Positions 9,289 to 40,681 of a DNA stretch of 64,000 nt are shown here, one piece after another (position 1 is the first letter of the stretch; each line of letters begins with the position of its first letter). Position numbers and translations under genes: made by a program. The notes below the pieces were generated by a model. The model had not been told where the DNA came from and searched no databases. It saw only the letters and a program-made list of their open reading frames with translations. The DNA lies in assembly GCA_002372275.1 (NCBI GenBank), contig DFFP01000003.1:17851-81850 (forward strand), written 5' to 3'. The DNA is from Alphaproteobacteria bacterium UBA3773. Its GTDB lineage: Bacteria; Pseudomonadota; Alphaproteobacteria; RF32; CAG-239.

Positions 9289-12200
9289 CTACCAACTTGC
9301 AGGGGGTATAATCGTCGCACCGGTTCTTCTTTCTCCATTTACAATCTCAGCCATACGAGGCGTCATCTTATAAACGTAGTAATCTTCTGTATCAGTCGGA
9401 CTGCTGTCTAACGTACAATTGCTATCGCATTCTATGCTAGACTTATTATAAGGAAGAGGACCATTACATTCTGAAACAGGCTTCTTAATACGAAACCAAT
9501 AAGTGGTGCCATAATCAAGCTTGTGTGTAGCAGAAGAATACTTTTGTCCTTCTCCTACACAGTCACCATCCGCAGTACCAAGATCAGCACATTTATTAAC
9601 ATTGCAGTCCCCACTTGGATTTACAAAATTACCTTCCAAAGTAATTTGAAGTTCACCATCACAATTTGCGTTATCGCATACCTGTGCCTCAACACCAACC
9701 ACATTTGTGAATAGGAAGAAGTCATTTTTAACCGGCGTGCAGATATCACCCTCTAGCGTATATCCTTCATCGCAATCTGTAATGTCAGCACCATCACAAA
9801 TACCATGTGCCGGACAATCGTTACATGTGCCGCATGTTCCGTCTGCCACAAAATAGCCTGTTCCTGATCGGCAGTTAGGCCTCCAGCAACCATGTTCAAC
9901 AGATCCTCGATCAGAAGGCAAACACATCGAATTTTCACCAAAATACTTATTAGCTGTATCACATTCGCATTCGATTTCCGTACCTGAACCTACACGAGTA
10001 TTTCTGTCCGCACATCCGGTTTTTTTATAACAAGATGCTGATTCATCAACCCATGAGATTGATGCACTAATTTCTGAAGTTTTATAGTGGCTTCTATGAG
10101 CATCATCTTTGCCTATTTCATTATCTCCTGTACATGGATAAATACATCTCATATTTTTTCCTTTTTCTCCGTTAGTCTGTGTAGCATTTACACAGGACAC
10201 CTTTCGACAATATCCACAACCTGGTATCACAGCCGAAACAGTGGAATTATGATGAGTATAGGCTGCAAGACTATTAGCATGACTAGCGTAAGATTGACCA
10301 CTTATATATGGGGAATCACAGACGTATGCTCCATTATCGAGCGTCAATTCTTCACATTGCAAACTTGTACATCTTCCATCTATGTAATTTTCATTTTTCG
10401 GACAACAATGACCATTAGTTGCGTCATAACCATCATCACATGTGTATTTATAACAGTTTGTTCCTTCAACCGGAGTACAGACATAACCATCTCCAACCGG
10501 ATTATCATGACAAGTTGATGTTGAGTGATAGCTGTTTAAACCTTTATCACTTATATCACCATCTTGAAACTCACATGAGTTCATGTCTGCTGTTGTAATA
10601 TAAAAAGCCATCATATACGAACACTGATCTGAAGAGACATATGAAGTTATATGATACTGATTGGTCAGAATAAATTCATTATATTTATCACCATCATCTG
10701 TAACATTTATATGACCAGCGGGAGAATTTGCACATGCAAAGTCTTTCACTCGATAATATACAGGTCTATTGTTATTATTTGTCTCGGCTTCAATCCTTAT
10801 CGTATCGCCAATATAGGCAAACGCATTGTCTGCCGAAAAATACTGAGTCGAAGCGGAATGTTTACGGCAGTAAGAATTTTTCCCATTCCCCCATATATAT
10901 GCTCCGTTTACAAGAGTAGCACTATCCTTATCCATAGTCTTCTCATGTCCAACGGTTATATCTGTAATTGTAAAATCAGTAATGGTGCTGTCAGTCATAA
11001 CAGAAATACATACCGGTTTTTCAACGCACTTATAATTTTCACTATCCCACATATAATAATGTGTTCCGTTATTATCTGTTGGGTGATAACCAGTATTACA
11101 ACTTATTTTATAGCATTGTCCACTTGTATCCGAGGTTACTACCTCTTCTAAAAGATACATATCTGTTTGATATTCTAAATATCTTGTTGTAGTGCTTAAA
11201 ACATAACTGTCGCCACGCTGCGTACACTGCGCGAGTTCACAATATCCATCCGAATTAGGCAAATATCCTTCTTTGCAATCCAATCTATAGCACGTCAGAT
11301 CATAGTAGCCGCCGCAAGCACCGGTAGACCAACAACGCAGCCGTGATTTTACAGCTGTGCATTTATATCCTGTTGCTGTGCAATGAGGGTCATCTGCTGA
11401 ATTATAGTAGCTGTTAATTCCATCATTCTTTTGATCATTTTCACAAGATCTGCAATCATACATGGTATAACACTGACCATCAGATCCCGTTGCAGTTCCA
11501 TTACTATCTCTGACCTCAAAATAAGCGGGGCAACTTTTCTCATTCTCTAATTTTATTGTCGTTAGATATTGACCGGTTGTCGGTTTTGTATAATAACTTT
11601 TTCCAAATCCTTGGCCTATTTCGTCACAAGTTTTAAGCTCCATAGAAGCTTCAGCTTCAACACTTTCACCTTCCAATCCGAGACTTGCGACATATCTGCC
11701 AGTTATATCCGTTTGTATCGCTTCTTCTTTTTGCTGATTGTTTTTATCATAAGCATGCAAAGCATCTACCGATACGCCAGAAACAAAACTATTTTCCCCT
11801 GAACGATCTGAGCATATTCCTTCTTCGCTACACACTTTGAATGAAGCACTCACCAAAATATCAATTCCGACAGGATTTACATCTTGTGGCCCTTTATAAG
11901 TTGCAGTTCCACTATCTTCCTGTATTTGTCCGGATACAACCCTTGTTTCCGTTCCACTGGCATCAATAGATTGAATAACGCTACCCTTTTCTGCTCTTTG
12001 TGTCGAACCGCTTCCTGTTTCCGTTGTATGGTAAATTTGATATATCAAATCAAATTGACAAGGTGTACCGACATGTGACTCATCACAGCGTCCCAAAGTA
12101 GCATTAACTGTTGCATTTTTGATTTTGAAATTAAATTTCTTTGCTAATTGATAACAAGTCTGCCCTGTTTTCTTCGTGTCTTTAATCTCGGAACATATAA

Positions 12201-13296
12201 CATCATTTTTTGAACAATAACTGTCATTTTGATCTGTATGATAACTTAAAAACTGGTCATCAGCTAAACCGCCGTCTAAATCTTCACATGCTTTTGCGAC
12301 GCAGCGTCCGCATGTGTTATCTTGAACATTTATTGTATCAACAAAATTAAAATAATCTGAATTACATTCATTTCTTGGAACATAAGTTTTCTCACAATTT
12401 TCATCATAAACTTCCGCACATGTCTCGTAAGCTCTACAAGTCCAATACTCGCCAATTTGCGCATCATATATTTTCTGGCATGCTTTTCCTAATGCACAAC
12501 AATTTGCTTCCTCACATGAAGAATATCCTTGTCTGCAGTAACCACATTGATCATTACCAGAAAATTGGTTAATTGGTTGAAAATCACTCTCATCACAATC
12601 TGCTAAATTGGCAAGCGTATCATACCCCTCGGGGCAAGATTCCGGTTCACAGCTGAAAGAAGTTCCAATAATTGATGTAGAATTTTCCTCTCTTATAAAA
12701 GACACAGGAGAAGACATAAAATTCGAATAGACCGAGGCATTTGCTGTTTCTTTGAAACCGGTATTGCATTGCCATTGTGTATAAAAGGGTATACTTTGAC
12801 CGCAAGAGGCAATAGTGATCTGATCGTTAGCTGTAGCATTTTCAGGTAAGACAAAAATAGCTTTTTCGTATTCTTCCTTATACTTTTTCATAACATTAAC
12901 ATAATCAACCTCACATTTACCATAAGTACCTTTTTCGCATTCATCGGAGAGTTTAGCATAATCACCTTTGTTATATTCCGTCCATTTACAAATCTTATCT
13001 TGATTGCAATCGAAGCAGTTTAAACCATGGAAAGAAACGGGGACACACATTTTGCCATTTTCTGGCTTATCAATATCGCTCAACGCACCATCTTCACACT
13101 TATATTGTCTGCACCATATATAGCCCTTGTCGAACGGACATGTTATGTATCCGTCCACACAAGTAATATCCTTCTTAAGTTTATAACCTAAGCTTTCACA
13201 TTCCGGTTTAGGTACGCAATTTCCACCGCACCCTTCATCTGCTGCCATAGCAGCCGGCGCAAACAAAATACAAGCAATTAAGAAAATCTTTTTCAT
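9289..13296 (-). CDS. Giant secreted cysteine-rich protein of 1335 aa with EGF-like C-x-x-GY motifs. Possible adhesin or effector; hypothetical.
   Basis: Signal peptide MKKIFLIACILFAPAAMAADEGCGGNC. Very high Cys, Gly, Tyr, Asp, Asn, Thr and Ser content with recurring C-x(2-4)-C-x(2)-GY-x(n)-C spacing (CYKISCNTGYHPTDNNG..., CYRLDCKEGYLPNSDGYC, CYKYTCDDGYDATNGHCC). The coding region is more AT-rich than the flanking ribosomal genes. Confidence 0.8.
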   Translation of the reverse strand: MKKIFLIACILFAPAAMAADEGCGGNCVPKPECESLGYKLKKDITCVDGYITCPFDKGYIWCRQYKCEDGALSDIDKPENGKMCVPVSFHGLNCFDCNQDKICKWTEYNKGDYAKLSDECEKGTYGKCEVDYVNVMKKYKEEYEKAIFVLPENATANDQITIASCGQSIPFYTQWQCNTGFKETANASVYSNFMSSPVSFIREENSTSIIGTSFSCEPESCPEGYDTLANLADCDESDFQPINQFSGNDQCGYCRQGYSSCEEANCCALGKACQKIYDAQIGEYWTCRAYETCAEVYDENCEKTYVPRNECNSDYFNFVDTINVQDNTCGRCVAKACEDLDGGLADDQFLSYHTDQNDSYCSKNDVICSEIKDTKKTGQTCYQLAKKFNFKIKNATVNATLGRCDESHVGTPCQFDLIYQIYHTTETGSGSTQRAEKGSVIQSIDASGTETRVVSGQIQEDSGTATYKGPQDVNPVGIDILVSASFKVCSEEGICSDRSGENSFVSGVSVDALHAYDKNNQQKEEAIQTDITGRYVASLGLEGESVEAEASMELKTCDEIGQGFGKSYYTKPTTGQYLTTIKLENEKSCPAYFEVRDSNGTATGSDGQCYTMYDCRSCENDQKNDGINSYYNSADDPHCTATGYKCTAVKSRLRCWSTGACGGYYDLTCYRLDCKEGYLPNSDGYCELAQCTQRGDSYVLSTTTRYLEYQTDMYLLEEVVTSDTSGQCYKISCNTGYHPTDNNGTHYYMWDSENYKCVEKPVCISVMTDSTITDFTITDITVGHEKTMDKDSATLVNGAYIWGNGKNSYCRKHSASTQYFSADNAFAYIGDTIRIEAETNNNNRPVYYRVKDFACANSPAGHINVTDDGDKYNEFILTNQYHITSYVSSDQCSYMMAFYITTADMNSCEFQDGDISDKGLNSYHSTSTCHDNPVGDGYVCTPVEGTNCYKYTCDDGYDATNGHCCPKNENYIDGRCTSLQCEELTLDNGAYVCDSPYISGQSYASHANSLAAYTHHNSTVSAVIPGCGYCRKVSCVNATQTNGEKGKNMRCIYPCTGDNEIGKDDAHRSHYKTSEISASISWVDESASCYKKTGCADRNTRVGSGTEIECECDTANKYFGENSMCLPSDRGSVEHGCWRPNCRSGTGYFVADGTCGTCNDCPAHGICDGADITDCDEGYTLEGDICTPVKNDFFLFTNVVGVEAQVCDNANCDGELQITLEGNFVNPSGDCNVNKCADLGTADGDCVGEGQKYSSATHKLDYGTTYWFRIKKPVSECNGPLPYNKSSIECDSNCTLDSSPTDTEDYYVYKMTPRMAEIVNGERRTGATIIPPASW

Positions 13297-13420
13297 ATGG
13301 TTTCTCCGAAGAAAACAGAACTATAGTTATTTAGATTGTACATTTTTTTTTGTATCAAATCAACTCATTTTTTCGAGCATTTTTATGAATTATTTGTTAC
13401 AACAATGCTTTCCTTTTTCT

Positions 13421-13589
13421 GTCATCCCTCGAGGTGCGCGCAAGCGTCACCTCGTCAAGGGATCTAACCCTCAATCGCCCGCGCCTTGGCGCATAAAGGC
13501 GATTCTTCTTTTCTCTCACCCCTGGAATCGCAGATCGGCAAAGCCAACGCCGCAAGATGCAAGCTCAAGGGTCTAACAAAAACGTCATC
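13421..13589. repeat. Modular palindromic repeat, A+B modules
   Basis: gtcatccctcgaggtgcgcgcaagcgtcacctcgtcaagggatctaaccctcaatcgcccgcgccttggcgcataaaggcgattc followed by cccctggaatcgcagatcggcaaagccaacgccgcaagatgcaagctcaagggtctaacaaaaacgtcatc. Near-identical to 8985-9215. The ORF at 13385-13576 in the track lies inside this repeat. Confidence 0.8.
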
Positions 13590-13623
13590 TAAGAGGAACG
13601 CCGAAAGGCGCAATTTTCCTTAT

Positions 13624-13660
13624 AAAAAAACGCGCCCCTAAAATCAGAGCGCGCTTTTTT
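13624..13660. terminator. Bidirectional intrinsic terminator at the 3' end of rplO and the spc-operon block
   Basis: aaaaaaacgcgcc-cctaaaatcaga-gcgcgctttttt: a GC stem flanked by an A-run and a T-run. Confidence 0.55.
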
Positions 13661-13679
13661 ATTGTTTTAAGCGTTCAGT

Positions 13680-14144
13680 TTATTTCACAAAATTCACTTT
13701 ACCGCCGGCTTTTTCAACAGCTTCAACAGCTGCTTTCGAAGCGGAGTTCACCGTGATATTCACTGCACTTGTAATGGCGCCGTTTGCAAGCAATCTGACA
13801 CCATCTAACTTTTTGGTGACCAAACGTGCAGCCAAAAGCGAATCGATTGTAATTTCGCTGGCATTTAACTTACCGGCATCAATTGCTTTTTGAATACGAT
13901 CCAAGTTAACCACGGCAAAGTGTGTTGAAAACGGATTTTTAAAACCGTGCTTCGGAAGCTGACGATAAATCGGCATCTGTCCGCCTTGAAAACCCTGAAC
14001 AGAAGCGCCGGAACGAGCCTTCTGACCCTTCTGACCGCGCGCTGAGGTTTTACCCTTACCGCTTCCGATACCGCGACCAACGCGAATGCGATTCTTTGTC
14101 GCGCCCGGATTATCATGTAATTCATTCAGTTTCATTTTTTTCAC
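13680..14144 (-). CDS. rplO: 50S ribosomal protein L15
   Basis: [43 protein letters not shown] is the L15 signature. Confidence 0.9.
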
Positions 14145-14288
14145 CTAATTTTCTAATTTTTCAACGTGTTAAAGTTTCATCAATGTTCTTGGCAAAAGGG
14201 GCATGCTACGCAGTTATTTTCGAACGCCGTGTAGGCAAAAGCTACACAAGTGAAAAAATGACAAGTATGATGCCCCTTTTCACAAGAA

Positions 14289-14474
14289 CTATTCTTCAAC
14301 TTTGACGAGGTGGCTGACCTTCTTAATCATGCCGCGAATGGAAGGTGTATCTTCCAAAACGCGTGTACGATTGATTTTGTTTAAGCCAAGACCGATTAAA
14401 GTTGCTCTTTGCGTATCGGGTTTACCGATAGGACTTGCAATTTGCGTTACCTTAATTGTTTTCTTACTACTCAT
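14289..14474 (-). CDS. rpmD: 50S ribosomal protein L30
   Basis: 61 aa, [44 protein letters not shown]. Confidence 0.85.
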
Positions 14475-17272: not shown

Positions 17273-17584
17273 CTATTTATCGATTACTTCACCGGTTTTG
17301 CGTGCCACGCGAACCTTTGTGCCTTTATCGTTCTTAAAGCCGACTTTACTCGGTTTACCGTTTGAAACGATGGCAACATTCGATACATGAATGGCGGCTT
17401 CTTTTGAAACGATACCACCTGCGCTTTGTTGGCTCGGTTTGGTATGACGTTTCACAAGGTTAACGCCCGAAACGACGACTTTGCTTTCTTTTGGCATAGC
17501 TTTTAAGACTTCGCCTGTTTTGCCTTTGTCATCGCCGGAAATGATGATAACCTGGTCACCTTTTTTAATTTTCATTTTGGGCAT
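17273..17584 (-). CDS. rplX: 50S ribosomal protein L24
   Basis: 103 aa. [24 protein letters not shown] is a KOW motif. Confidence 0.9.
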
Positions 17585-17952
17585 TACAATACCTCCGGTG
17601 CTAATGAAATGATTTTCATAAATTTCTTTGTGCGCAGTTCACGAGTGACGGGGCCGAAAATACGTGTTCCGACCGGTTCACCGTCTTTATCGATAATCAC
17701 TGCAGCATTGCTGTCAAAACGGATGACGCTGCCGTCTTTACGTCTGATGTCGCTGGCCGTTCTAACGATAACGGCTTTGCATACATCACCTTTTTTAACG
17801 CGTCCTTTCGGGAGTGCGTCTTTAACGGAAACAACAATCACATCACCCACTGTTGCATGCATTCTCTTGGACCCACCAAGAACTTTGATGCACTGCACCT
17901 GACGGGCGCCGGAATTATCGGCGACATCAAGGTTGGTTTGCATTTGTATCAT
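17584..17952 (-). CDS. rplN: 50S ribosomal protein L14
   Basis: [30 protein letters not shown]. Confidence 0.9.
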
Positions 17953-17972
17953 ATTCGTCTTCCTTTACTTTA

Positions 17973-18209
17973 TTAAGCGTTGGCGGTAACTACAGTCCAT
18001 TTTTTGGTTTTTGAATAAGGTTTCGATTCAATAATCGAAACATTATCCCCAACCTTGAACTGATTGTTTTCATCGTGAGCGGCATATTTTTTGCTCTTCT
18101 TCACGAATTTTTTATAAACGGGATGCATCACCTGACGCTCTACACTGACCACGACGGTTTTATCCCCTTTATCGCTTACCACAACACCTTGAAGAATACG
18201 TTTAGGCAT
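17973..18209 (-). CDS. rpsQ: 30S ribosomal protein S17
   Basis: 78 aa, [37 protein letters not shown]. Confidence 0.9.
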
Positions 18210-18220
18210 ATTATTTTCTC

Positions 18221-18418
18221 CTAATTGTTCTTTTGGCGCTCTGATATGAGCGTGTTGATTCGAGCTGCCTCACGACGAACTTTGCGAATGCTCGCGGTAT
18301 TCGTCAATTGGCCTGTTGATTGTTGAATACGCAAATTAAACTGTTCTTTTTTGTTTTCGTTTAATTTCGTCTCAAGCTCATCAAGACTTAATGCTCTTAA
18401 ATCTTTAGTTTTAACCAT
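18221..18418 (-). CDS. rpmC: 50S ribosomal protein L29
   Basis: 65 aa, [26 protein letters not shown]. Confidence 0.85.
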
Positions 18419-18846
18419 TATGCTTCTCCTTTTTGGCTATTCAAGCGTTTAACAAATTTGCTCTTAACGGGCAATTTGGCAGCACCCAAAGCAAATGCAC
18501 GGCGAGCGACACTTTCATCAATGCCTTTCGCTTCGAACATAATGCGTCCGGGTTTTACTCTTGCAACCCAAAATTCGACAGCACCTTTACCTTTACCCAT
18601 ACGAACCTCAGCGGGTTTATCCGACACAGGAACATCAGGAAAGATACGGATCCACAGCTTACCAAGTCTTTTCATTTCACGGGTAATCGCACGACGAGCT
18701 GCCTCAATTTGGCGAGCCGTAATACGTTCCGGTGTCAAAGCTTTCAAGCCGTAATCACCTAAATTTAATGTGTATCCGCCTTTGGCTTGGCCGTGAATAC
18801 GACCTTTGTGCTGTTTGCGGAATTTCAAACGTTTTGGACTTAACAT
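18418..18846 (-). CDS. rplP: 50S ribosomal protein L16
   Basis: [24 protein letters not shown]. Confidence 0.9.
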
Positions 18847-18859
18847 TTCACAACCTCAC

Positions 18860-19528
18860 TTACTTCTGTTCTGAAAACTTTTTGTCCTGCGCCATCGGAT
18901 CGTGAGCCATAATTTCGCCCTTATAGATCCAAACTTTTACGCCGCAGGCACCATAAGTTGTATGTGCCGTTGAGGTAGCATAGTCAATATCTGCACGAAG
19001 TGTGTGCAAGGGCACTCTTCCTTCGCGATAATGTTCGGTTCTTGCAATTTCAGCACCGCCTAAACGACCGCTGCAGCTGACCTTAATACCTTCTGCGCCC
19101 AAACGAAGAGCAGATTGCATCACGCGTTTCATAGCTCTTCTGAAAGCGACACGACGTTCAAGCTGAGCAGCAACCGAATCGGCCACCAACTTAGCGTCAA
19201 GTTCAGGTTTTCTGACTTCCAAAATGTTTAATTGTACTTCGGAAGATGTCAATTTTTGAATAGATTTGCGTAAAGCTTCAATATCTTGACCTTTCTTACC
19301 GATCACAATACCTGGTCTTGCAGACAAAATTGTCACTCTGGCTTTTTTGGCAGGGCGTTCGATAATAATTTTGCTCACACCGGCCTGAGCCAATTTTTCT
19401 TTCAAGAATTTTTTAATTTTTAAATCTTCATGCAAGTAGTCTGTGAATTTTTCATCAGCATACCAGCGGGAATCCCAAGTACGGTTAACTCCCAAACGAA
19501 GACTTGTCGGGTTTACTTTCTGTCCCAT
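18860..19528 (-). CDS. rpsC: 30S ribosomal protein S3
   Basis: [24 protein letters not shown] with KH and S3-C domains. Start trimmed from the track ORF 18860-19558. Confidence 0.9.
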
Positions 19529-19532
19529 GTAC

Positions 19533-19892
19533 TTACTCCTCACGCTCGGCGACAACAACGGTCACAGATGAAAACGGCTTCAAAACTCTGGCGCCTCTTC
19601 CTCTGCCCCTTGCGTGCATACGTTTCATAACAAGCCCTTTACCGACATAAGCTTCACGAACGGTGAGCTTATCGATATTGAGCCCATGGTTATTTTCGGC
19701 ATTAGCAATCGCACTTTTCACGACTTGCAATACCACATTAGCTACTCTTCTTTTTGAGAAAGTGAGTTCAGCAATTGCCTTCTCTGCACTTTTGCCGCGA
19801 ATAAGAGCTGCAACCAAGTTTAATTTTCTCGGGCTTGTTCTAATTGAGCGACAAATAGCTGTTGCTGTTTTTGTTTGATTTGTATTAGGCAT
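19533..19892 (-). CDS. rplV: 50S ribosomal protein L22
   Basis: The track ORF extends upstream across rpsS. The 119-aa form starting at [39 protein letters not shown] is L22-like and abuts the rpsS stop. Confidence 0.85.
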
Positions 19893-19893
19893 T

Positions 19894-20178
19894 TTACTTT
19901 CCACCTTTCTTAGCTGTCTTGTCAGCGGCATGTCCGTAGAATGTACGCGTCGGCGCAAATTCACCAAACTTATGGCCAACCATATCTTCAGTGACAAGAA
20001 CCGGAATAAATTTATGTCCGTTATGAACACCGAATGTTAAACCAACAAATTGCGGCAACATCGTCGAGTGACGTGACCAAATTTTAATCACTTCATTACG
20101 ACCCGAAGCTCTGGCTGCATCAGCTTTTTTCAAGAGATAGCCGTCTACAAAAGGTCCTTTCCATACAGAACGTGTCAT
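19894..20178 (-). CDS. rpsS: 30S ribosomal protein S19
   Basis: 94 aa, [18 protein letters not shown]...[32 protein letters not shown]. Confidence 0.9.
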
Positions 20179-29364: not shown

Positions 29365-31248
29365 TTATTTTTTCTTCTTAAATTCAACAACCATCATTGT
29401 AATATCATCAAATTGCGGTGCTTTTTTAATGAATTTTTTAATGCATTGATGCACATATTCCAGCGTTTCGGATACTTTGACTTCTTTTTGGTTCAGCGCT
29501 TCAAGCAAGCGATCTTCCCCGAAAAATTTATTTTCTTTGGCCTGAGCCTCGGTCACACCGTCCGTATATAAAAACAACCTGTCATGTTCACTTAAGGTTA
29601 GCGTTTCCGTCTGAAAATCAAACCCTTCCATCACACCCAAAACAATATTTTTAGCCACATCAACATATTTATATACATTATTTGAGCGCACCAGCGGCGG
29701 ACAGTGTCCGGCGTTCACATATTCGATTATTCCCGTCTTAAAATCCAAAATACCGACAAACGCTGTCACAAACATCAAGGGCGAACTGGTGCTGCAAAGC
29801 GAATTATTTGCTTTTTCAATCGCCTGTTTTAAGGGGTATCCTGCCTGCAACATATTTTTAATTGCCGTTTTAGCCGACATCATATAAAGCGCAGCCGTAA
29901 TACCTTTCCCGCAAACGTCTGCCATCACAAGCCCCGCATGATTTTCATCCACCGGGAAAAAGTCATAAAAATCGCCTCCGACTTCTCGCGCCGGAATCAT
30001 CGAAGCATAAAGTTCAAAATAATCGGTTTTCGGAAAATCTTTCGGTAAAGCCGAATCCTGAATTGTTTTGGCAATTGCGAGTTCTGAAGCCAATTTTTCT
30101 TTTTCGGCCGAAATTTTTGCAAGCTCCGTTAAATGCGCTTTCATATCTGTTTTCATTTTATTAAAAGCGGCAGCCAATTTAGCCAATTCCGAAGGTTCCT
30201 TCAAATAAATTGTCCTGTCCAAATCTCCATCACTGATTTTTTGAGCAATATCGGTTAAGGTATCAATCGGTTGATTGATGTTTTTCTTTAAGACCTTATA
30301 CAAAACCGATACAATAACCATCATACTGACAAGCAAAACGCTGAGCAATACCACTAAATGATGAAACGCATTACTGAAAAGTTCCAAAAATGGAATATTG
30401 ACAATCAAAAACATTCCGTTACTGAGACGCTTGATATAAGGCACATACACTACCCCCTTATAATTAAAGCGAACGCCGTCTTTAAGCTCATCTGAATACC
30501 ACTTCATTTCTTTTAAGGATTGTCCCATCATTAAAGAATTATCAACGCCTTTTTCTGTCGTGGCAATCACGTAGTCATTCGTTTTATCCGCAAACAAAAC
30601 AAAGCTGTTCGGTGTCGGTTTAATGTTTAAGATAGATTTTAAAATCGTATCCAGTTCCCAATCCACCGTTGCCATACCGATTAAATCATCTCCGTTATAT
30701 ATTCCGGCGCCGATGGTCGTCATTAAAATACCGAGTTGCGTACTTTTATAAGGTCTTGTCCACGAAATTCTTTTACCGTTTTTTACGTCGTTTTTAATTT
30801 CTTTATACCAATTTTGGTCAAAATAATTAAAGGTGCCATCCACACAAGAATATAAAAGCTCAATTTTTCTGTTATCATCAAAAAGGGCATGTATGCAGTG
30901 ATTTTTATTTTTTTCATCTGCTTTATAGGGCAAAAAATAAATACCGTTTCCCATCGAATTCGGATAGTTTTTCAAAATACCTGTTACAAAAAACTCCGCA
31001 ATCTGCTGTATATTTCCTTTTTGATGATAAATTTCGCCCATCAAAGCTAAATCCAGTGCATTTTTTTCAAGCGCTGCAATTTCCGTATTAATTTGTTTTT
31101 CAAAAGCCGTAATTGAAGCATTATTGCTTGAAATAATGAGCTCTTTATCATGATAAAAAGCCATTGTTGCCGCACTGATAACCACAGCAGAGAGTGCAAT
31201 GAGCAATGCAAAAGTCACAAAAACAATTTTAGATTTAATGCTTTCCAC
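29365..31248 (-). CDS. Membrane sensor phosphatase: periplasmic Cache-like domain, HAMP, then a PP2C/SpoIIE (RsbU-like) phosphatase domain
   Basis: 627 aa. N-terminal TM, about 280-aa periplasmic region, second TM, HAMP (NINQPIDTLTDIAQKISDGDLDRTIYLKEPSELAKLAAAFNKM), then a SpoIIE domain (PAREVGGDFYDFF, GLVMADVCGKGI, LFLYTDGVTEA). Confidence 0.75.
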   Translation of the reverse strand: MESIKSKIVFVTFALLIALSAVVISAATMAFYHDKELIISSNNASITAFEKQINTEIAALEKNALDLALMGEIYHQKGNIQQIAEFFVTGILKNYPNSMGNGIYFLPYKADEKNKNHCIHALFDDNRKIELLYSCVDGTFNYFDQNWYKEIKNDVKNGKRISWTRPYKSTQLGILMTTIGAGIYNGDDLIGMATVDWELDTILKSILNIKPTPNSFVLFADKTNDYVIATTEKGVDNSLMMGQSLKEMKWYSDELKDGVRFNYKGVVYVPYIKRLSNGMFLIVNIPFLELFSNAFHHLVVLLSVLLVSMMVIVSVLYKVLKKNINQPIDTLTDIAQKISDGDLDRTIYLKEPSELAKLAAAFNKMKTDMKAHLTELAKISAEKEKLASELAIAKTIQDSALPKDFPKTDYFELYASMIPAREVGGDFYDFFPVDENHAGLVMADVCGKGITAALYMMSAKTAIKNMLQAGYPLKQAIEKANNSLCSTSSPLMFVTAFVGILDFKTGIIEYVNAGHCPPLVRSNNVYKYVDVAKNIVLGVMEGFDFQTETLTLSEHDRLFLYTDGVTEAQAKENKFFGEDRLLEALNQKEVKVSETLEYVHQCIKKFIKKAPQFDDITMMVVEFKKKK

Positions 31249-37727: not shown

Positions 37728-38363
37728 ATGACATCAAAATCAGCACATGATGAAGCAAATATAATAAGAAGCGGCTTATATGAAAACCAGATTGAGCCGA
37801 CAGACGCCTTAAGATTATCTGCTCGCATTGAAGGTGAAGAAACCGCCAAGCGTGATATTGTCTTTCATGCTTTGCAAAATAATTCTTCTCTTGAAATGCT
37901 TCACATGTCATTAGATATTGCCGCTACAATGAAATATCCGTCTCCTAAATTTCAAGTTTTATCTGAAATTTTAAAAAAATGCCCGAATAATTTTGAGCAA
38001 TCTGTGATTATTGATTACAAAGCCATAAAACAATCTGAGACCGTTGACGGGGCCTCTGCCGAAAAATCCGAAATCATTGAAACGATTTGCGGACGTGAAA
38101 ATAGGATGCCCATGTCCTTGTTTAATGAGATGGTTCATCTGTCTTCCACGCTTTACGATTCGGATTGTGTCCCCAATGCTTTTGCCGCACTTTCAAAACG
38201 TCCGGAATGTCAAATGAGTCACATTCAACATTTCACAGACATCGTCAATGGTCATGTTACAGATGAAAACAGAAGATCAAATTTATTAAAACAAATCACA
38301 AGCGCACCGATCTGCGTTCAAGCCCGTCAAAAGCATTCTGTTAAACGTTCAAATACGCTTTAA
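37728..38363 (+). CDS. Hypothetical protein
   Basis: 211-aa ORF with a plausible RBS (taggagaataaatATG). No recognisable motif. Confidence 0.4.
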   Translation: MTSKSAHDEANIIRSGLYENQIEPTDALRLSARIEGEETAKRDIVFHALQNNSSLEMLHMSLDIAATMKYPSPKFQVLSEILKKCPNNFEQSVIIDYKAIKQSETVDGASAEKSEIIETICGRENRMPMSLFNEMVHLSSTLYDSDCVPNAFAALSKRPECQMSHIQHFTDIVNGHVTDENRRSNLLKQITSAPICVQARQKHSVKRSNTL

Positions 38364-40681
38364 TCCGGTGCATCAATTTTAAGGGTCAAAGTCAAAATAT
38401 TTTTACCCTTTATATACCTGTAAGAAGCTTTATCAGACATTTGTTTAACCAAAAAGATGCCTAAGCCGCCTGTTGCTCTGTCTTCCAGCGGAGCCGAAAT
38501 GTCCGGATCTTTTCTTAAGAGCGGATTAAACTTTAAGCCGCTGTCTGTCAGTTTTAAAACGATTAATCCGCCTTTTTTGCGCAAACTGACATCCACATAT
38601 CCCGTACAACCGACATAAGCATAGCTGGCCACATTTGTAAATGACTCTTCTGCCACCAGATTAAGTCTCTGAATTGTTTTAAGCGGCAAAGAAAATGCCG
38701 TTGCTCCTTCATTTAACCACTTTGAAAAGAGACTATAATTTTCCGTGGTTGCCAAAAGCGTCACATGTCTTTCATCTGTTTTATTCTGCATTCCGTTATA
38801 TTTAAATGCGAGCATTGTCAAATCATCACTTTGGGCCGTATTTTGCACAAAATCCTCCACATTTTTCTTCACATCTTCAAGCAAGCGCCTTGATCCGCTT
38901 AATTTCAAATTATTTAAGCAATCGAGCAATCTTTCCTCCCCATAAAATTCTCTTTTTTCATTTAAGGCCTCTGTCAAACCGTCGGTATATAAAAAGAGCG
39001 TATCTCCTTTATTGAGCAAAGTTTCCGTCACATGATATTCAAAATCGTCCAGTGCACCCAAAGGCATATTAGAATCTGTTTTGAGGTATTCAAACTTACC
39101 ACCATTGCGACAAATAAGCGGCGGATTATGCCCGCAATTTATAAAAGCGATTTTTCCGGTTTCCAAATCCACAATACCGATAAAAGCCGTCACAAAAAAT
39201 CCGAATTGATTATTTTCCTGAATTTTATTATTGATTTTTGAAATCAAGCGACCATGACCTTCTTTATCATTGAACATATTTTTAATTGTTGTTTTAACGG
39301 TCATCATAAACAAAGCGGCCGGCACACCTTTGCCCGAAACATCAGCTACCAAAAACACAAATTGTTTAAGCGAAATAAAGAAAAAGTCATAAAAATCGCC
39401 TCCGATTTCTCTGGCCGGGTTCATCAAAGCAAAGATATTAAATTCCTTCACTTCCGGATAGAAAAATGACGGCAAATATGAGCTTTGAATTTTACTTGCC
39501 ACATCAAGTTCCGTTGCGATACGTTCTTTTTCTTTTGTGAAAGTATTGACGTGCTCAATATATTCTTTTAAGTTTTCACCCATCTGATTAAATGTTTTGG
39601 CAAGTTGTGCAAACTCTGCCGGTTTTTGCAAATGATTTTTAGCATCAATTTTTCCCTGTCCGAAGAGTTCTGCCGTTCGGGTCAATGACTTAATGGGTCT
39701 GTTCACATTTTTCTCCAAGATCAAATAAATTGCCAAAACCATCAAACAGATAGCCGGAAACAAAAAGAGAAACATCCAGAGCCTTATTCTTTTAATGGGA
39801 GCAAATAATTCTTCTTCGGGAATATTCATCACAAAGATCATCCCGTTTCCAAGTTCTTTCACATTTGTTAAAAACTGCTTGCCATTGTGTTTTAAAAATG
39901 AAATACCTTTCAAATCATCACGATACCACGAAACTTCTTTAAGAGATTGACCGAAAAGTTCATTTTGCTTCAAATTAGGATCCGTTGACCCGATCACAAA
40001 ATCGTTATTTTTGTCTGCCACCAGCGAAAAACTGTGCGGTGTCGGTTTCATACTCATGAGTGTTGCCACAATATCGCCGATTTTCCAGTCAATTGTTGAA
40101 AGCCCGACAAGTTTATCATTAAAGTATATACCGGCACCTACCGTTGTCATCAATGTTTCGGATCCCTGATTTTCATAGTATGGCGACGACCATTCAACTT
40201 TAATATTTTTTTCAAGGGAAGGTATAATTTCACGATACCATTTTTGCGTTAAATAATCATATTCTTCGCTTGCAAATTGATCATCAAGCAAAACCTTTCC
40301 CTCATCATTGTGATAAGCATAATAGCATGTTCTTTTTTGATTATCATAGACCGAGTATGCTTTAAACCACACACCGCCCCCCAAAAGCGCCGGAGATTTT
40401 TCAAAAAAATCTTGCACAACAGAGGCAATCATCGGTGCCGATCTGTCTGTTTTGTAGTGAAGTTCGCCGATCAGTGCCAAGTCGACAGCCTTATTTTCCA
40501 TCACATTAATGTCTTTTTCGATTTTGCGTGCAAAGGTCGAAATTTCAAAATCGCTTGCCGTAATTATTAATTTTTTCGCATTTTTATAATTAAGGTAACT
40601 GAAAAAAGAAACAATTCCGCATAAAAATATCAAAATAAAAACCAAGAGAACAACAATTTTCGATTTAACGGTTTTAAGCAT
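38360..40681 (-). CDS. Membrane sensor: Cache-like periplasmic domain, HAMP, SpoIIE/PP2C phosphatase, then a C-terminal RsbW-like GHKL (HATPase_c) serine-kinase/anti-sigma domain
   Basis: 773 aa, paralogous to 29365-31248 over the first roughly 600 residues (HAMP NVNRPIKSLTRTAELFGQGKIDAKNHLQKPAEFAQLAKTFNQM; SpoIIE PAREIGGDFYDFF, LVADVSGKGV, LFLYTDGLTEA). The extra C-terminal region (LVAEESFTNVASYAYVGCTGYVDVSL...TDSGLKFNPL...GGLGIFLVKQMSD) matches the HATPase_c_2 family of anti-sigma factors. Confidence 0.7.
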   Translation of the reverse strand: MLKTVKSKIVVLLVFILIFLCGIVSFFSYLNYKNAKKLIITASDFEISTFARKIEKDINVMENKAVDLALIGELHYKTDRSAPMIASVVQDFFEKSPALLGGGVWFKAYSVYDNQKRTCYYAYHNDEGKVLLDDQFASEEYDYLTQKWYREIIPSLEKNIKVEWSSPYYENQGSETLMTTVGAGIYFNDKLVGLSTIDWKIGDIVATLMSMKPTPHSFSLVADKNNDFVIGSTDPNLKQNELFGQSLKEVSWYRDDLKGISFLKHNGKQFLTNVKELGNGMIFVMNIPEEELFAPIKRIRLWMFLFLFPAICLMVLAIYLILEKNVNRPIKSLTRTAELFGQGKIDAKNHLQKPAEFAQLAKTFNQMGENLKEYIEHVNTFTKEKERIATELDVASKIQSSYLPSFFYPEVKEFNIFALMNPAREIGGDFYDFFFISLKQFVFLVADVSGKGVPAALFMMTVKTTIKNMFNDKEGHGRLISKINNKIQENNQFGFFVTAFIGIVDLETGKIAFINCGHNPPLICRNGGKFEYLKTDSNMPLGALDDFEYHVTETLLNKGDTLFLYTDGLTEALNEKREFYGEERLLDCLNNLKLSGSRRLLEDVKKNVEDFVQNTAQSDDLTMLAFKYNGMQNKTDERHVTLLATTENYSLFSKWLNEGATAFSLPLKTIQRLNLVAEESFTNVASYAYVGCTGYVDVSLRKKGGLIVLKLTDSGLKFNPLLRKDPDISAPLEDRATGGLGIFLVKQMSDKASYRYIKGKNILTLTLKIDAPD

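Follow-up and report, generated by a model that had tools for sequence, protein, structure and literature searches.

In the 64,000-nucleotide stretch of contig DFFP01000003.1 from Alphaproteobacteria bacterium UBA3773 that was analysed here (hereafter the window), the S10–spc operon of ribosomal protein genes stops at rplO, and the place where secY and adk would be expected is taken by a 4-kb gene for a 1335-amino-acid (aa) cysteine-rich secreted protein (P0001), with short repeats on both sides of it. This arrangement is probably the product of three layered events, namely an old fission of the operon, a variable slot holding a gene from a family of giant cysteine-rich proteins, and a late colonisation of the flanking spacers by repeats. 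The structural and evolutionary parts of this account are much firmer than the part that concerns the function of the protein.

The rplO–secY break

In the near-universal arrangement of the spc operon, rplO is followed by secY, and in Proteobacteria also by adk. From rpsJ to rplO the window has all the expected ribosomal protein genes in canonical order, 21 S10–spc genes on the minus strand as called in an identical public contig (L081), the last being rplO itself (13680..14144, minus strand), which encodes L15 and matches Pfam Ribosomal_L27A with an E-value of 9e-21. Instead of a co-transcribed secY immediately 3' of rplO, there is an intrinsic terminator that closes the spc transcription unit (approximately 13622..13660, minus strand), consisting of a GC-rich hairpin and a U-run, and then the 1335-aa gene. 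The segment 13596–13680, which contains this terminator, folds at −30.8 kcal/mol (z −4.0), and the terminator sequence is conserved in L083, a contig from another sample. Searches by tblastn with SecY and Adk queries, taken from a fetched alphaproteobacterial locus, returned no match anywhere in the 64-kb window. The Pfam match, gene order and fold bear out the original prediction that the operon stops at rplO and is followed by a terminator, and the open reading frame (ORF) calls and tblastn searches agree with its claim that secY–adk is absent from the expected site and a giant secreted cysteine-rich gene is present there.

Eighty loci around L15 homologues were fetched from species-representative genomes, comprising the 23 closest to the window and 57 more distant ones (L024–L080). 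In every one of the 57 more distant Alphaproteobacteria, secY lies within a few hundred bases of rplO, usually together with adk. The 23 closest loci all come from metagenome-assembled genomes (MAGs) of uncultured gut or rumen Alphaproteobacteria, with L15 70–81% identical. Among them, secY is found at most 300 nt from rplO in two (L013 and L023), 0.9–2.7 kb downstream in four (L011, L017, L021 and L022, the gap in the last three being filled by an ORF of 391–675 aa) and as part of an inverted block 5–7 kb downstream in two (L002 and L010); no secY is present in the available flank of a further 13, which is 10 kb long in eleven of them, and the flank is too short to judge in L016 and L019 (2/23). 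In a neighbour-joining tree of six short ribosomal proteins, which carries no support values, the adjacent and inserted states are basal, and all lineages with a separated or inverted secY, except L018, fall into one derived clade together with the window and L083. Within the window's sub-clade the block secY–adk–rpsM–rpsK–rpoA stands alone, behind five different upstream neighbours.

No homologue of the giant gene, nor of the YgjP-like, CxxCxxCC-domain or dnaB genes that lie beyond it in the window, was found downstream of rplO in the 23 related species loci; the genes in this position vary from species to species and include, for example, type IVb pilin-like genes and a GNAT acetyltransferase. 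As the loss of adjacency is common to many related species with differing downstream genes, the rplO–secY break is old, shared by a large derived clade of gut and rumen Alphaproteobacteria to which this genome belongs, and not a recent event. Gene order in relatives had been put forward in the original prediction as a check, and in the 23 nearest loci adjacency proved to be lost in most and kept in basal lineages. As evidence that would tell against its own reading, the same source had named close relatives that routinely lack secY at this position with no gene inserted there; they do routinely lack it, but other genes fill the position.

A survey of Gammaproteobacteria and Bacilli found one species, Bacillus selenitireducens, with secY outside spc (PMC8046335), so that clade-wide loss of secY from spc is uncommon, yet no new kind of event. 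The route described in that study for the rearrangement of operon clusters has a few genes invading a junction, with further rearrangement afterwards. The loci described here resemble it in the invasion of the junction (as in L011, L017 and L021/L022), in the subsequent drifting apart of the two parts, and in that secY is kept elsewhere with its usual partners; they differ from the published cases in that the cut falls inside spc, between rplO and secY, and not between operons, and in that it marks a whole clade of gut Alphaproteobacteria. Literature searches returned no description of this clade's operon break. With the junction seen intact, with an insertion of 0.9–2.7 kb, with the secY block inverted nearby and fully separated, all within one clade, it provides a clear natural example of a near-universal operon coming apart. 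Given these states, rplO and secY cannot safely be taken to be adjacent when these abundant gut bacteria, which are uncultured, are annotated or their MAGs are checked.

Some further observations were made on these loci. In L002 (10777–11418), L005 (10556–11230), L006 (10790–11395) and L008 (10920–11642), the product of the gene directly 3' of rplO begins like a pilin, with a G|RSM[IV]E motif recognised by eye; Pfam identified Bundlin and PilS in L002, gave a below-threshold match to N_methyl in L006 (E 0.0056) and returned no match for L005 and L008. The slot 3' of rplO may, in species of this type, hold another kind of surface-structure gene. In L011 (11347–12699), secY reads as two ORFs of 255 and 191 aa, which represents a frameshift or assembly error, or a pseudogene. 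Within the operon, the rpmD–rplO spacer is unusually long, at 153 nt in the window (14145–14300) and 216 nt in L083 (534–749), and is the least conserved stretch of a segment that is otherwise 94–99% identical between the two; this suggests an indel or a small element within the operon. At the other end, the gene upstream of rpsJ on the same strand encodes a secreted AhpC-TSA/Redoxin (TlpA-like) protein (22770–23914), not tuf or fusA, and Pfam scans of the window gave no elongation-factor match for any ORF as large as EF-Tu or EF-G. In this genome the ribosomal super-cluster thus seems to be interrupted at the str|S10 junction too, and so to be fragmented at both ends.

The giant gene and its protein

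The gene for P0001 (9289..13296, minus strand) is called as a single ORF, and the exact protein is on record in public sequence data. A promoter-like site, TTGATT-17-TACAAT, was found by a consensus scan at 13335..13363 (minus strand), with a GGAG Shine–Dalgarno sequence at 13304–13307, and an intrinsic terminator lies just beyond the gene (9233..9270, minus strand), with 17-nt arms that are 94% complementary and a folding energy of −24.5 kcal/mol (z −5.4). Codon usage is within the range of the window's other genes. With predicted terminators on both sides, a promoter-like site in a conserved block and ordinary codon usage, the giant gene is an independent, monocistronic transcription unit. 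The left edge of the slot is formed by a gene for a YgjP-like metallopeptidase (8179..8907, plus strand; PF01863, E 2e-42), which is convergent with it.

P0001 contains 95 cysteines (7.1%), of which 94, an even number, remain after removal of the signal peptide. The signal peptide, MKKIFLIACILFAPAAMA|AD, is the sole hydrophobic segment of the protein (aa 1–18, 13243..13296, minus strand); its cleavage site, AMA|AD, was read by eye, and 17 of its 18 residues are identical in P0002, the corresponding protein of L083. The motif C-x(1-3)-G-[YFW] recurs 11 times, CXXC occurs seven times, and the protein ends in ...TGATIIPPASW. Neither Pfam nor NCBIfam gave anything usable for P0001 or its relatives, even at E-values up to 10, and a search of 5.8 billion proteins returned only P0001 itself, the L083 allele and one other protein, P0003, with all matches confined to the N-terminal 19%. 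The region from aa 257 to 1335 has no match at E≤1e-3 among the 142 other proteins of the family described below, and self-comparison revealed no internal repeats in it; a single-sequence AlphaFold2 model of aa 191–1335 was unusable, with a mean predicted local distance difference test (pLDDT) score of 30.6.

Two known classes of exported protein were considered, and neither gained support. The residues LIAC at aa 6–9 fit the lipobox [LVI][ASTVI][GAS]C, but cleavage there would leave a hydrophobic region of only five residues and the cysteine is not conserved in the family, which, judged by eye, makes a lipoprotein doubtful. Nor is P0001 recognisable as an autotransporter or a known outer-membrane-anchored adhesin, as there is no C-terminal beta-barrel or anchor domain in Pfam at E-values up to 10.

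A family with a shared N-terminal domain

The giant gene belongs to a so far undescribed and lineage-restricted family of giant cysteine-rich secreted proteins, on which literature searches returned nothing. What the family shares is an N-terminal domain (aa 19–190 of P0001; 12727..13242, minus strand), delimited from alignments, a profile search and an AlphaFold2 model. Ten cysteines form its invariant framework (C23, C27, C33, C46, C53, C62, C67, C84, C120 and C128), and directly after the signal peptide comes the signature C-x3-C-x3-P-x-C-x3-G-Y ... C-x2-G-Y-x2-C-P-F-D-x2-Y-x2-C-x2-Y-x-C. A second sub-domain reaches to about aa 190 and is repeated many times in the largest members. A profile built from the first 190 aa recovered 142 of 1.84 billion cluster representatives at E≤1e-3, of which 48 reached E≤1e-10; the longest of them has 3041 aa. 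P0001 carries the invariant columns and is matched by local hidden Markov models (HMMs) of the 200-aa N-terminal region (E 5.7e-61) and of an 85-aa core (1.3e-32). A signal-peptide-like N-terminus is present in 122 of 143 family proteins, and most members of at least 600 aa contain 9–11% cysteine; P0003, for example, has 906 aa with 10.8% cysteine and is 32% identical to P0001 over aa 1–187.

AlphaFold2 modelled the N-terminal domain with a pLDDT of about 90 for residues 30–180. No neighbour from the PDB was found for this model in the structure libraries searched, the best Foldseek match being the EGF-domain protein Pfs25 with a non-significant E-value of 0.88. The recurrent C-x(1-3)-G-[YFW] motif of P0001 is likewise reminiscent of EGF-type hairpins; however, as no Pfam match to EGF or a related domain was obtained at E-values up to 10, the likeness to EGF- or furin-like cysteine-rich repeats is one of motif only. 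Members of about 400 aa (for example P0054, P0061 and P0075) align with the giants only over roughly their first 95 residues and have unrelated C-terminal parts. The same core module thus stands ahead of unrelated C-terminal parts, which points to a portable N-terminal handle.

Variation between strains

The L083 contig allows one comparison between near strains. Its rpsE and rplO are 94–99% identical to those of the window at the nucleotide level, and a block containing the −10 element, start codon and signal peptide (13242–13341) is 95% identical, although the repeats just upstream of this block differ. Identity over the following approximately 650 nt of the giant gene is 67–91%, and beyond aa ~256 the alignment is noise. 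At the protein level, P0002 is 60% identical to P0001 over aa 1–256, and further on there are only short, non-significant matches (E 0.33 or worse). The two alleles also differ in size (1335 aa in the window versus 772 aa in L083). We designate aa 257–1335 (9292..12528, minus strand), which has no significant match to the L083 allele or to the family, the hypervariable region; in this one pairwise comparison, the pattern is that expected of a hypervariable or cassette-replaced locus.

Proposed sequence of events

The succession of events that we consider probable would begin with the severing of spc at the rplO–secY junction, in an ancestor from which a large clade of uncultured Alphaproteobacteria of the gut and rumen descends. 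This would have left S10–spc as it now is, ending at rplO with a terminator of its own, and secY–adk–rpsM–rpsK–rpoA as an independent operon, placed differently from species to species; the basal lineages that retain rplO–secY, several with 0.9–2.7 kb between the genes, fit the published route of invasion followed by separation. In this lineage, the slot 3' of rplO would have come to hold a self-contained unit, made up of the promoter-like site, Shine–Dalgarno sequence, 4-kb ORF and terminator, and its product would combine the common signal peptide and N-terminal domain of about 190 aa with a long remainder that is replaced wholesale between strains. The protein would leave the cytoplasm through Sec and undergo oxidative folding in the periplasm, where the 94 cysteines of the mature form could make up to 47 disulfides. 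Its N-terminal domain may act as a common handle for anchoring, assembly or onward secretion, and the variable, presumably protease-resistant remainder may be exposed, diversifying under pressure from host immunity, phage or ligands. As a last step, repeats would have colonised the spacers on the two sides of the gene, outside the parts that are transcribed.

A number of points weigh against this account. This genome's own secY was not located among the best 120 of 7838 SecY matches, and those that were looked up (P0146, P0150, P0151 and P0156) belong to other organisms. The six-protein neighbour-joining tree, being unsupported, does not prove one ancestral break over several independent ones, and L018 looks like an independent loss of adjacency. 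Hypervariability is taken from a single pair, the window and L083, which could have come to differ by one allelic replacement through recombination instead of sustained diversifying selection. In P0001, neither an outer-membrane anchor nor a secretion-system signal nor a convincing lipobox was recognised, and its suggested function is deduced only from its composition, its signal peptide, the conservation of its domain and the way in which it varies.

Family genes at other sites

An alternative to an old break with a later, variable slot is that a family gene already lay between rplO and secY before the split, and that recombination or turnover at this hypervariable locus then brought about or prepared the fission, leaving members of the family on either side of it. 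We consider this unlikely, although several findings are in line with it. Besides the L083 allele, the only homologue retrieved with P0001, P0003, lies near secY, one gene upstream of it in L084 and beside a second family member; this locus belongs to the window's sub-clade, with a SecY that is 88% identical to that of L002. In the basal L017, the 675-aa gene between rplO and secY (10895–12922; 6.2% cysteine) carries the core module internally (aa ~254–294), and in L092 and L093 a family member is found directly 3' of rpoA.

Against this, family genes are also present in unrelated, conserved slots, after ptsN and a LivJ-like gene in L085–L088 and after SIR2–sppA–gatCAB in L095–L097, and a metagenome scan with a five-sequence alignment gave five loci, all of them in a different slot. 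Loci chosen without regard to the family contain about four family genes per approximately 450 kb, by our estimate, at which density one gene directly after rplO in 23 loci is close to chance; no enrichment of family genes at the edges of ribosomal operons is therefore claimed. By our reading, the orientations in L084 are not derivable from an rplO–family gene–secY order by a single inversion, and in most lineages that lost the adjacency neither edge bears a family gene. The old break, with a family gene in the slot of this lineage, remains the reading that we prefer.

Two sets of these loci showed further features. The 675-aa protein of L017 has a C-terminal domain in common with P0142 and P0083, with a DUF1566-like 'W.LP' motif seen by eye that Pfam did not confirm, and after rpoA in the same locus (17532–19930) there are a gene of 416 aa (8.2% cysteine) and one of 306 aa (3.3% cysteine), the latter carrying the core module. 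The sub-family genes of L085–L088 and L095–L097 range from 154 to 1849 aa and, in L096 and L097, are apparently split into 154 + 290 aa.

Possible functions

Composition, export signal and variation suggest, tentatively, that the likeliest role of P0001 is that of a variable, disulfide-rich surface or secreted protein, a possibility to which we give less than even weight. Being made up of very large, extremely cysteine-rich proteins exported by Sec and without annotation, with a confidently modelled N-terminal domain that lacks a structural neighbour and a remainder replaced between strains, the family is a plausible candidate for a surface determinant facing host, phage or immunoglobulin A in gut commensals that are little understood. 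How an anaerobic or microaerophilic Gram-negative cell could fold a protein carrying dozens of disulfides is a further question that it poses.

Cysteine-rich variant surface proteins are known from protists, as the variant surface proteins (VSPs) and high-cysteine proteins of Giardia and the surface antigens of ciliates. The likeness to these lies in a large, modular, secreted protein with 7–11% cysteine, encoded by a multigene, strain-variable family in a protease-rich gut habitat. P0001 differs in being bacterial, in having its conserved part at the N-terminus, and in the lack of any detected relationship in sequence or fold; CXXC, with seven occurrences among 95 cysteines, is not its dominant motif and it has no C-terminal transmembrane helix, so that it is not a Giardia-type VSP. 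A more far-reaching idea is that the gut and rumen Alphaproteobacteria possess a bacterial counterpart of protist variant surface coats, made of disulfide-knotted giants (up to 3041 aa and ~350 cysteines) that are encoded in multiple slots, are replaced between strains and share one N-terminal domain with a fold outside the PDB, and that one such locus occupied the rplO–secY gap and split the operon by its turnover; this is speculative, and as a whole we regard it as unlikely.

Polymorphic toxin systems of the Rhs, CDI and MafB types also combine a conserved N-terminal part with a C-terminal part that is exchanged between strains. An effector of this kind, or one resembling a bacteriocin, in which an N-terminal trafficking module delivers an exchangeable toxic payload, would account for the conserved N-terminus and wholesale-replaced C-terminus of the giant protein, which is the hallmark architecture of such systems, and for the ~85-aa core module that heads the differing C-terminal parts of P0054, P0061 and P0075. 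It is nevertheless improbable. No toxin, Rhs, filamentous-haemagglutinin or peptidase domain was found at E-values up to 10, in Pfam or NCBIfam, and no immunity-like ORF lies downstream, where the terminator is followed by the convergent, housekeeping YgjP-like gene. The variable part is moreover cysteine-rich and more than 1000 aa long (~1080 aa), not a short terminal toxin domain. The proposal of a variable surface or secreted protein is the one retained here.

Repeats around the gene

Three repeat elements, here called A, B and C, are found near the giant gene. Repeat A, of about 89 nt and with two hairpins, has one copy on the right of the gene (13420..13508) and one on the left (9126..9213), which are 94% identical. 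Repeat B is also present on both sides (13518..13589 and 9043..9113; 89% identical). Element C (8906–8985) is followed by a 20-nt fragment of A (8988–9007), the two together spanning 8906..9007, and matches two places in L083 at 90–93% identity. An alignment of five copies of A includes two dispersed, intergenic ones at 27866..27950 and 58720..58810. The former lies just past the stop codon of a gene (28039–28980, minus strand) whose product is a secreted BspA-type leucine-rich-repeat protein of 313 aa. The window thus holds four copies and a fragment of A and two copies of B, numbers that apply to these 64 kb and may differ genome-wide, where none would be expected in shuffled sequence. Repeat A folds stably on both strands (z −4.5 for plus, −4.9 for minus), whereas B folds no better than shuffled sequence (z −0.1 and −1.5). 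All copies beside the gene are in the same orientation, in the order B–A on its left and A–B on its right, and they sit outside the predicted transcribed parts, past each terminator and before the promoter.

Neither A nor B occurs in any of the 23 related species loci, and L083 contains only a partial A (55 nt, 95% identical). As A and B are limited to this genome and its near-strain, the repeats are younger than the operon break. In L083, the stretch from the rplO terminator to the conserved promoter block contains C-related repeats, and the copy of A is found solely downstream of the gene; with the gene in the same place, its promoter region and signal peptide conserved and other repeats around it, the repeats appear to have turned over around a pre-existing gene. 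No Rfam family matched the window at gathering thresholds; for 8800–13750, searched at E≤1, there were only weak, sub-threshold, terminator-like matches.

We read A, B and C as young, dispersed, lineage-specific elements of a kind resembling REP/BIME sequences, colonising safe intergenic DNA as bystanders. REP/BIME sequences are the repetitive extragenic palindromes, and their mosaic clusters, of Enterobacteria and Pseudomonas. The likeness consists in a length of 70–90 nt, the formation of hairpins, a strictly intergenic and multi-copy occurrence in mosaic clusters, positions after terminators and between convergent genes, and quick turnover between strains. A is a palindrome with stable hairpins, B is not, and the elements are dispersed, intergenic and combined in mosaics (B–A, A–B and C with A). 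They differ from the known elements in having no relationship to any Rfam family, in that no RAYT (REP-associated tyrosine transposase) was seen among the window ORFs that were scanned, and in that B has no stable fold. The two 89-nt direct repeats, at 94% identity, could mediate deletion of the giant gene.

A quite different role was given to the repeats in the original prediction, which saw the gene as bracketed by them and ascribed the missing secY to a rearrangement, or an insertion, linked to the repeat family. In its explicit form, a repeat-bracketed cassette would have been inserted recently at rplO–secY through A and B and displaced secY–adk. Repeats are indeed present on both sides, in direct orientation and with 89–94% identity, and the GC content of the giant-gene region (0.36–0.39) is below that of the adjoining operon (0.40–0.46). 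The bracket is not symmetric, however, given the B–A and A–B orders, and A recurs as the fragment at 8988 and at two unrelated intergenic sites, beginning at 27866 and 58720. The break is common to many species that have neither the repeats nor the gene, L083 has its gene at this site with neither A nor B upstream of it, codon usage is no outlier, and no transposase or integrase gene is adjacent. Such an insertion is therefore very improbable, and the association of the break with the repeats does not hold. For similar reasons, a miniature inverted-repeat transposable element or a composite transposon carrying the gene was rejected: the repeats are direct, the order of modules is unlike on the two sides, and the L083 gene has no upstream A or B. 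Inspection by eye of the five aligned copies of A and their flanks showed no shared terminal inverted repeats or target-site duplication, and no transposase family was matched by Pfam among the window ORFs that were scanned, which were not all of them.

Authenticity of the junctions

Mis-assembly is unlikely to explain the layout. Four contigs in public records encode exactly this 1335-aa protein, among them one of 164,593 nt and one of 251,902 nt, and a public ENA/NCBI contig of 164.6 kb agrees with the window at 100% identity for 23.3 kb, across both repeat clusters and their junctions. L083, which comes from another sample, has rpmD–rplO at 94–99% nucleotide identity followed by a homologous but different, 772-aa allele, so that the junction between rplO and a family gene has been seen independently. 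A Logan contig that carries the gene (L082, 4260 nt) has both of its ends inside the two A copies, which shows only that A is multi-copy. The notion that a chimeric join at the repeats placed an unrelated gene after rplO, to which the branching of short-read assembly graphs within A might lend some colour, can be practically dismissed in view of the identical 164.6-kb contig, the recurrence of the protein on the 251.9-kb contig, the independent L083 junction and a repeat length of ~90 nt that is probably below typical read length. The concern over an artefact at 13300–13700 that had accompanied the original prediction is answered by the first and third of these.

Other genes in the window

Left of the YgjP-like gene lie a CxxCxxCC-domain gene (7731..8234, plus strand) and dnaB (6257..7729, plus strand); YgjP-like, YcgN-like (CxxCxxCC) and dnaB genes had been predicted beyond the second repeat cluster, and all three were found; the elements of the prediction as a whole lie at, or close to, the coordinates given for them. 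A gene at 1697–4186 (minus strand) encodes an 829-aa secreted protein with 4.1% cysteine, which showed no match to the cysteine-rich family; only a C-terminal trypsin-like peptidase domain was recognised in it, the N-terminal ~600 aa having no family match.

Further along, at 24160–27033 on the plus strand, is an overlapping triad of genes for a vWA protein (24160–24846), a PP2C phosphatase (24830–25588) and a Ser/Thr protein kinase (25570–27033). Two genes on the minus strand (29365–31248 and 38360–40681) encode paralogous membrane sensors with dCache/PDC–HAMP–SpoIIE (PP2C) architecture, the second of which also has a HATPase_c_2 domain resembling that of anti-sigma kinases.

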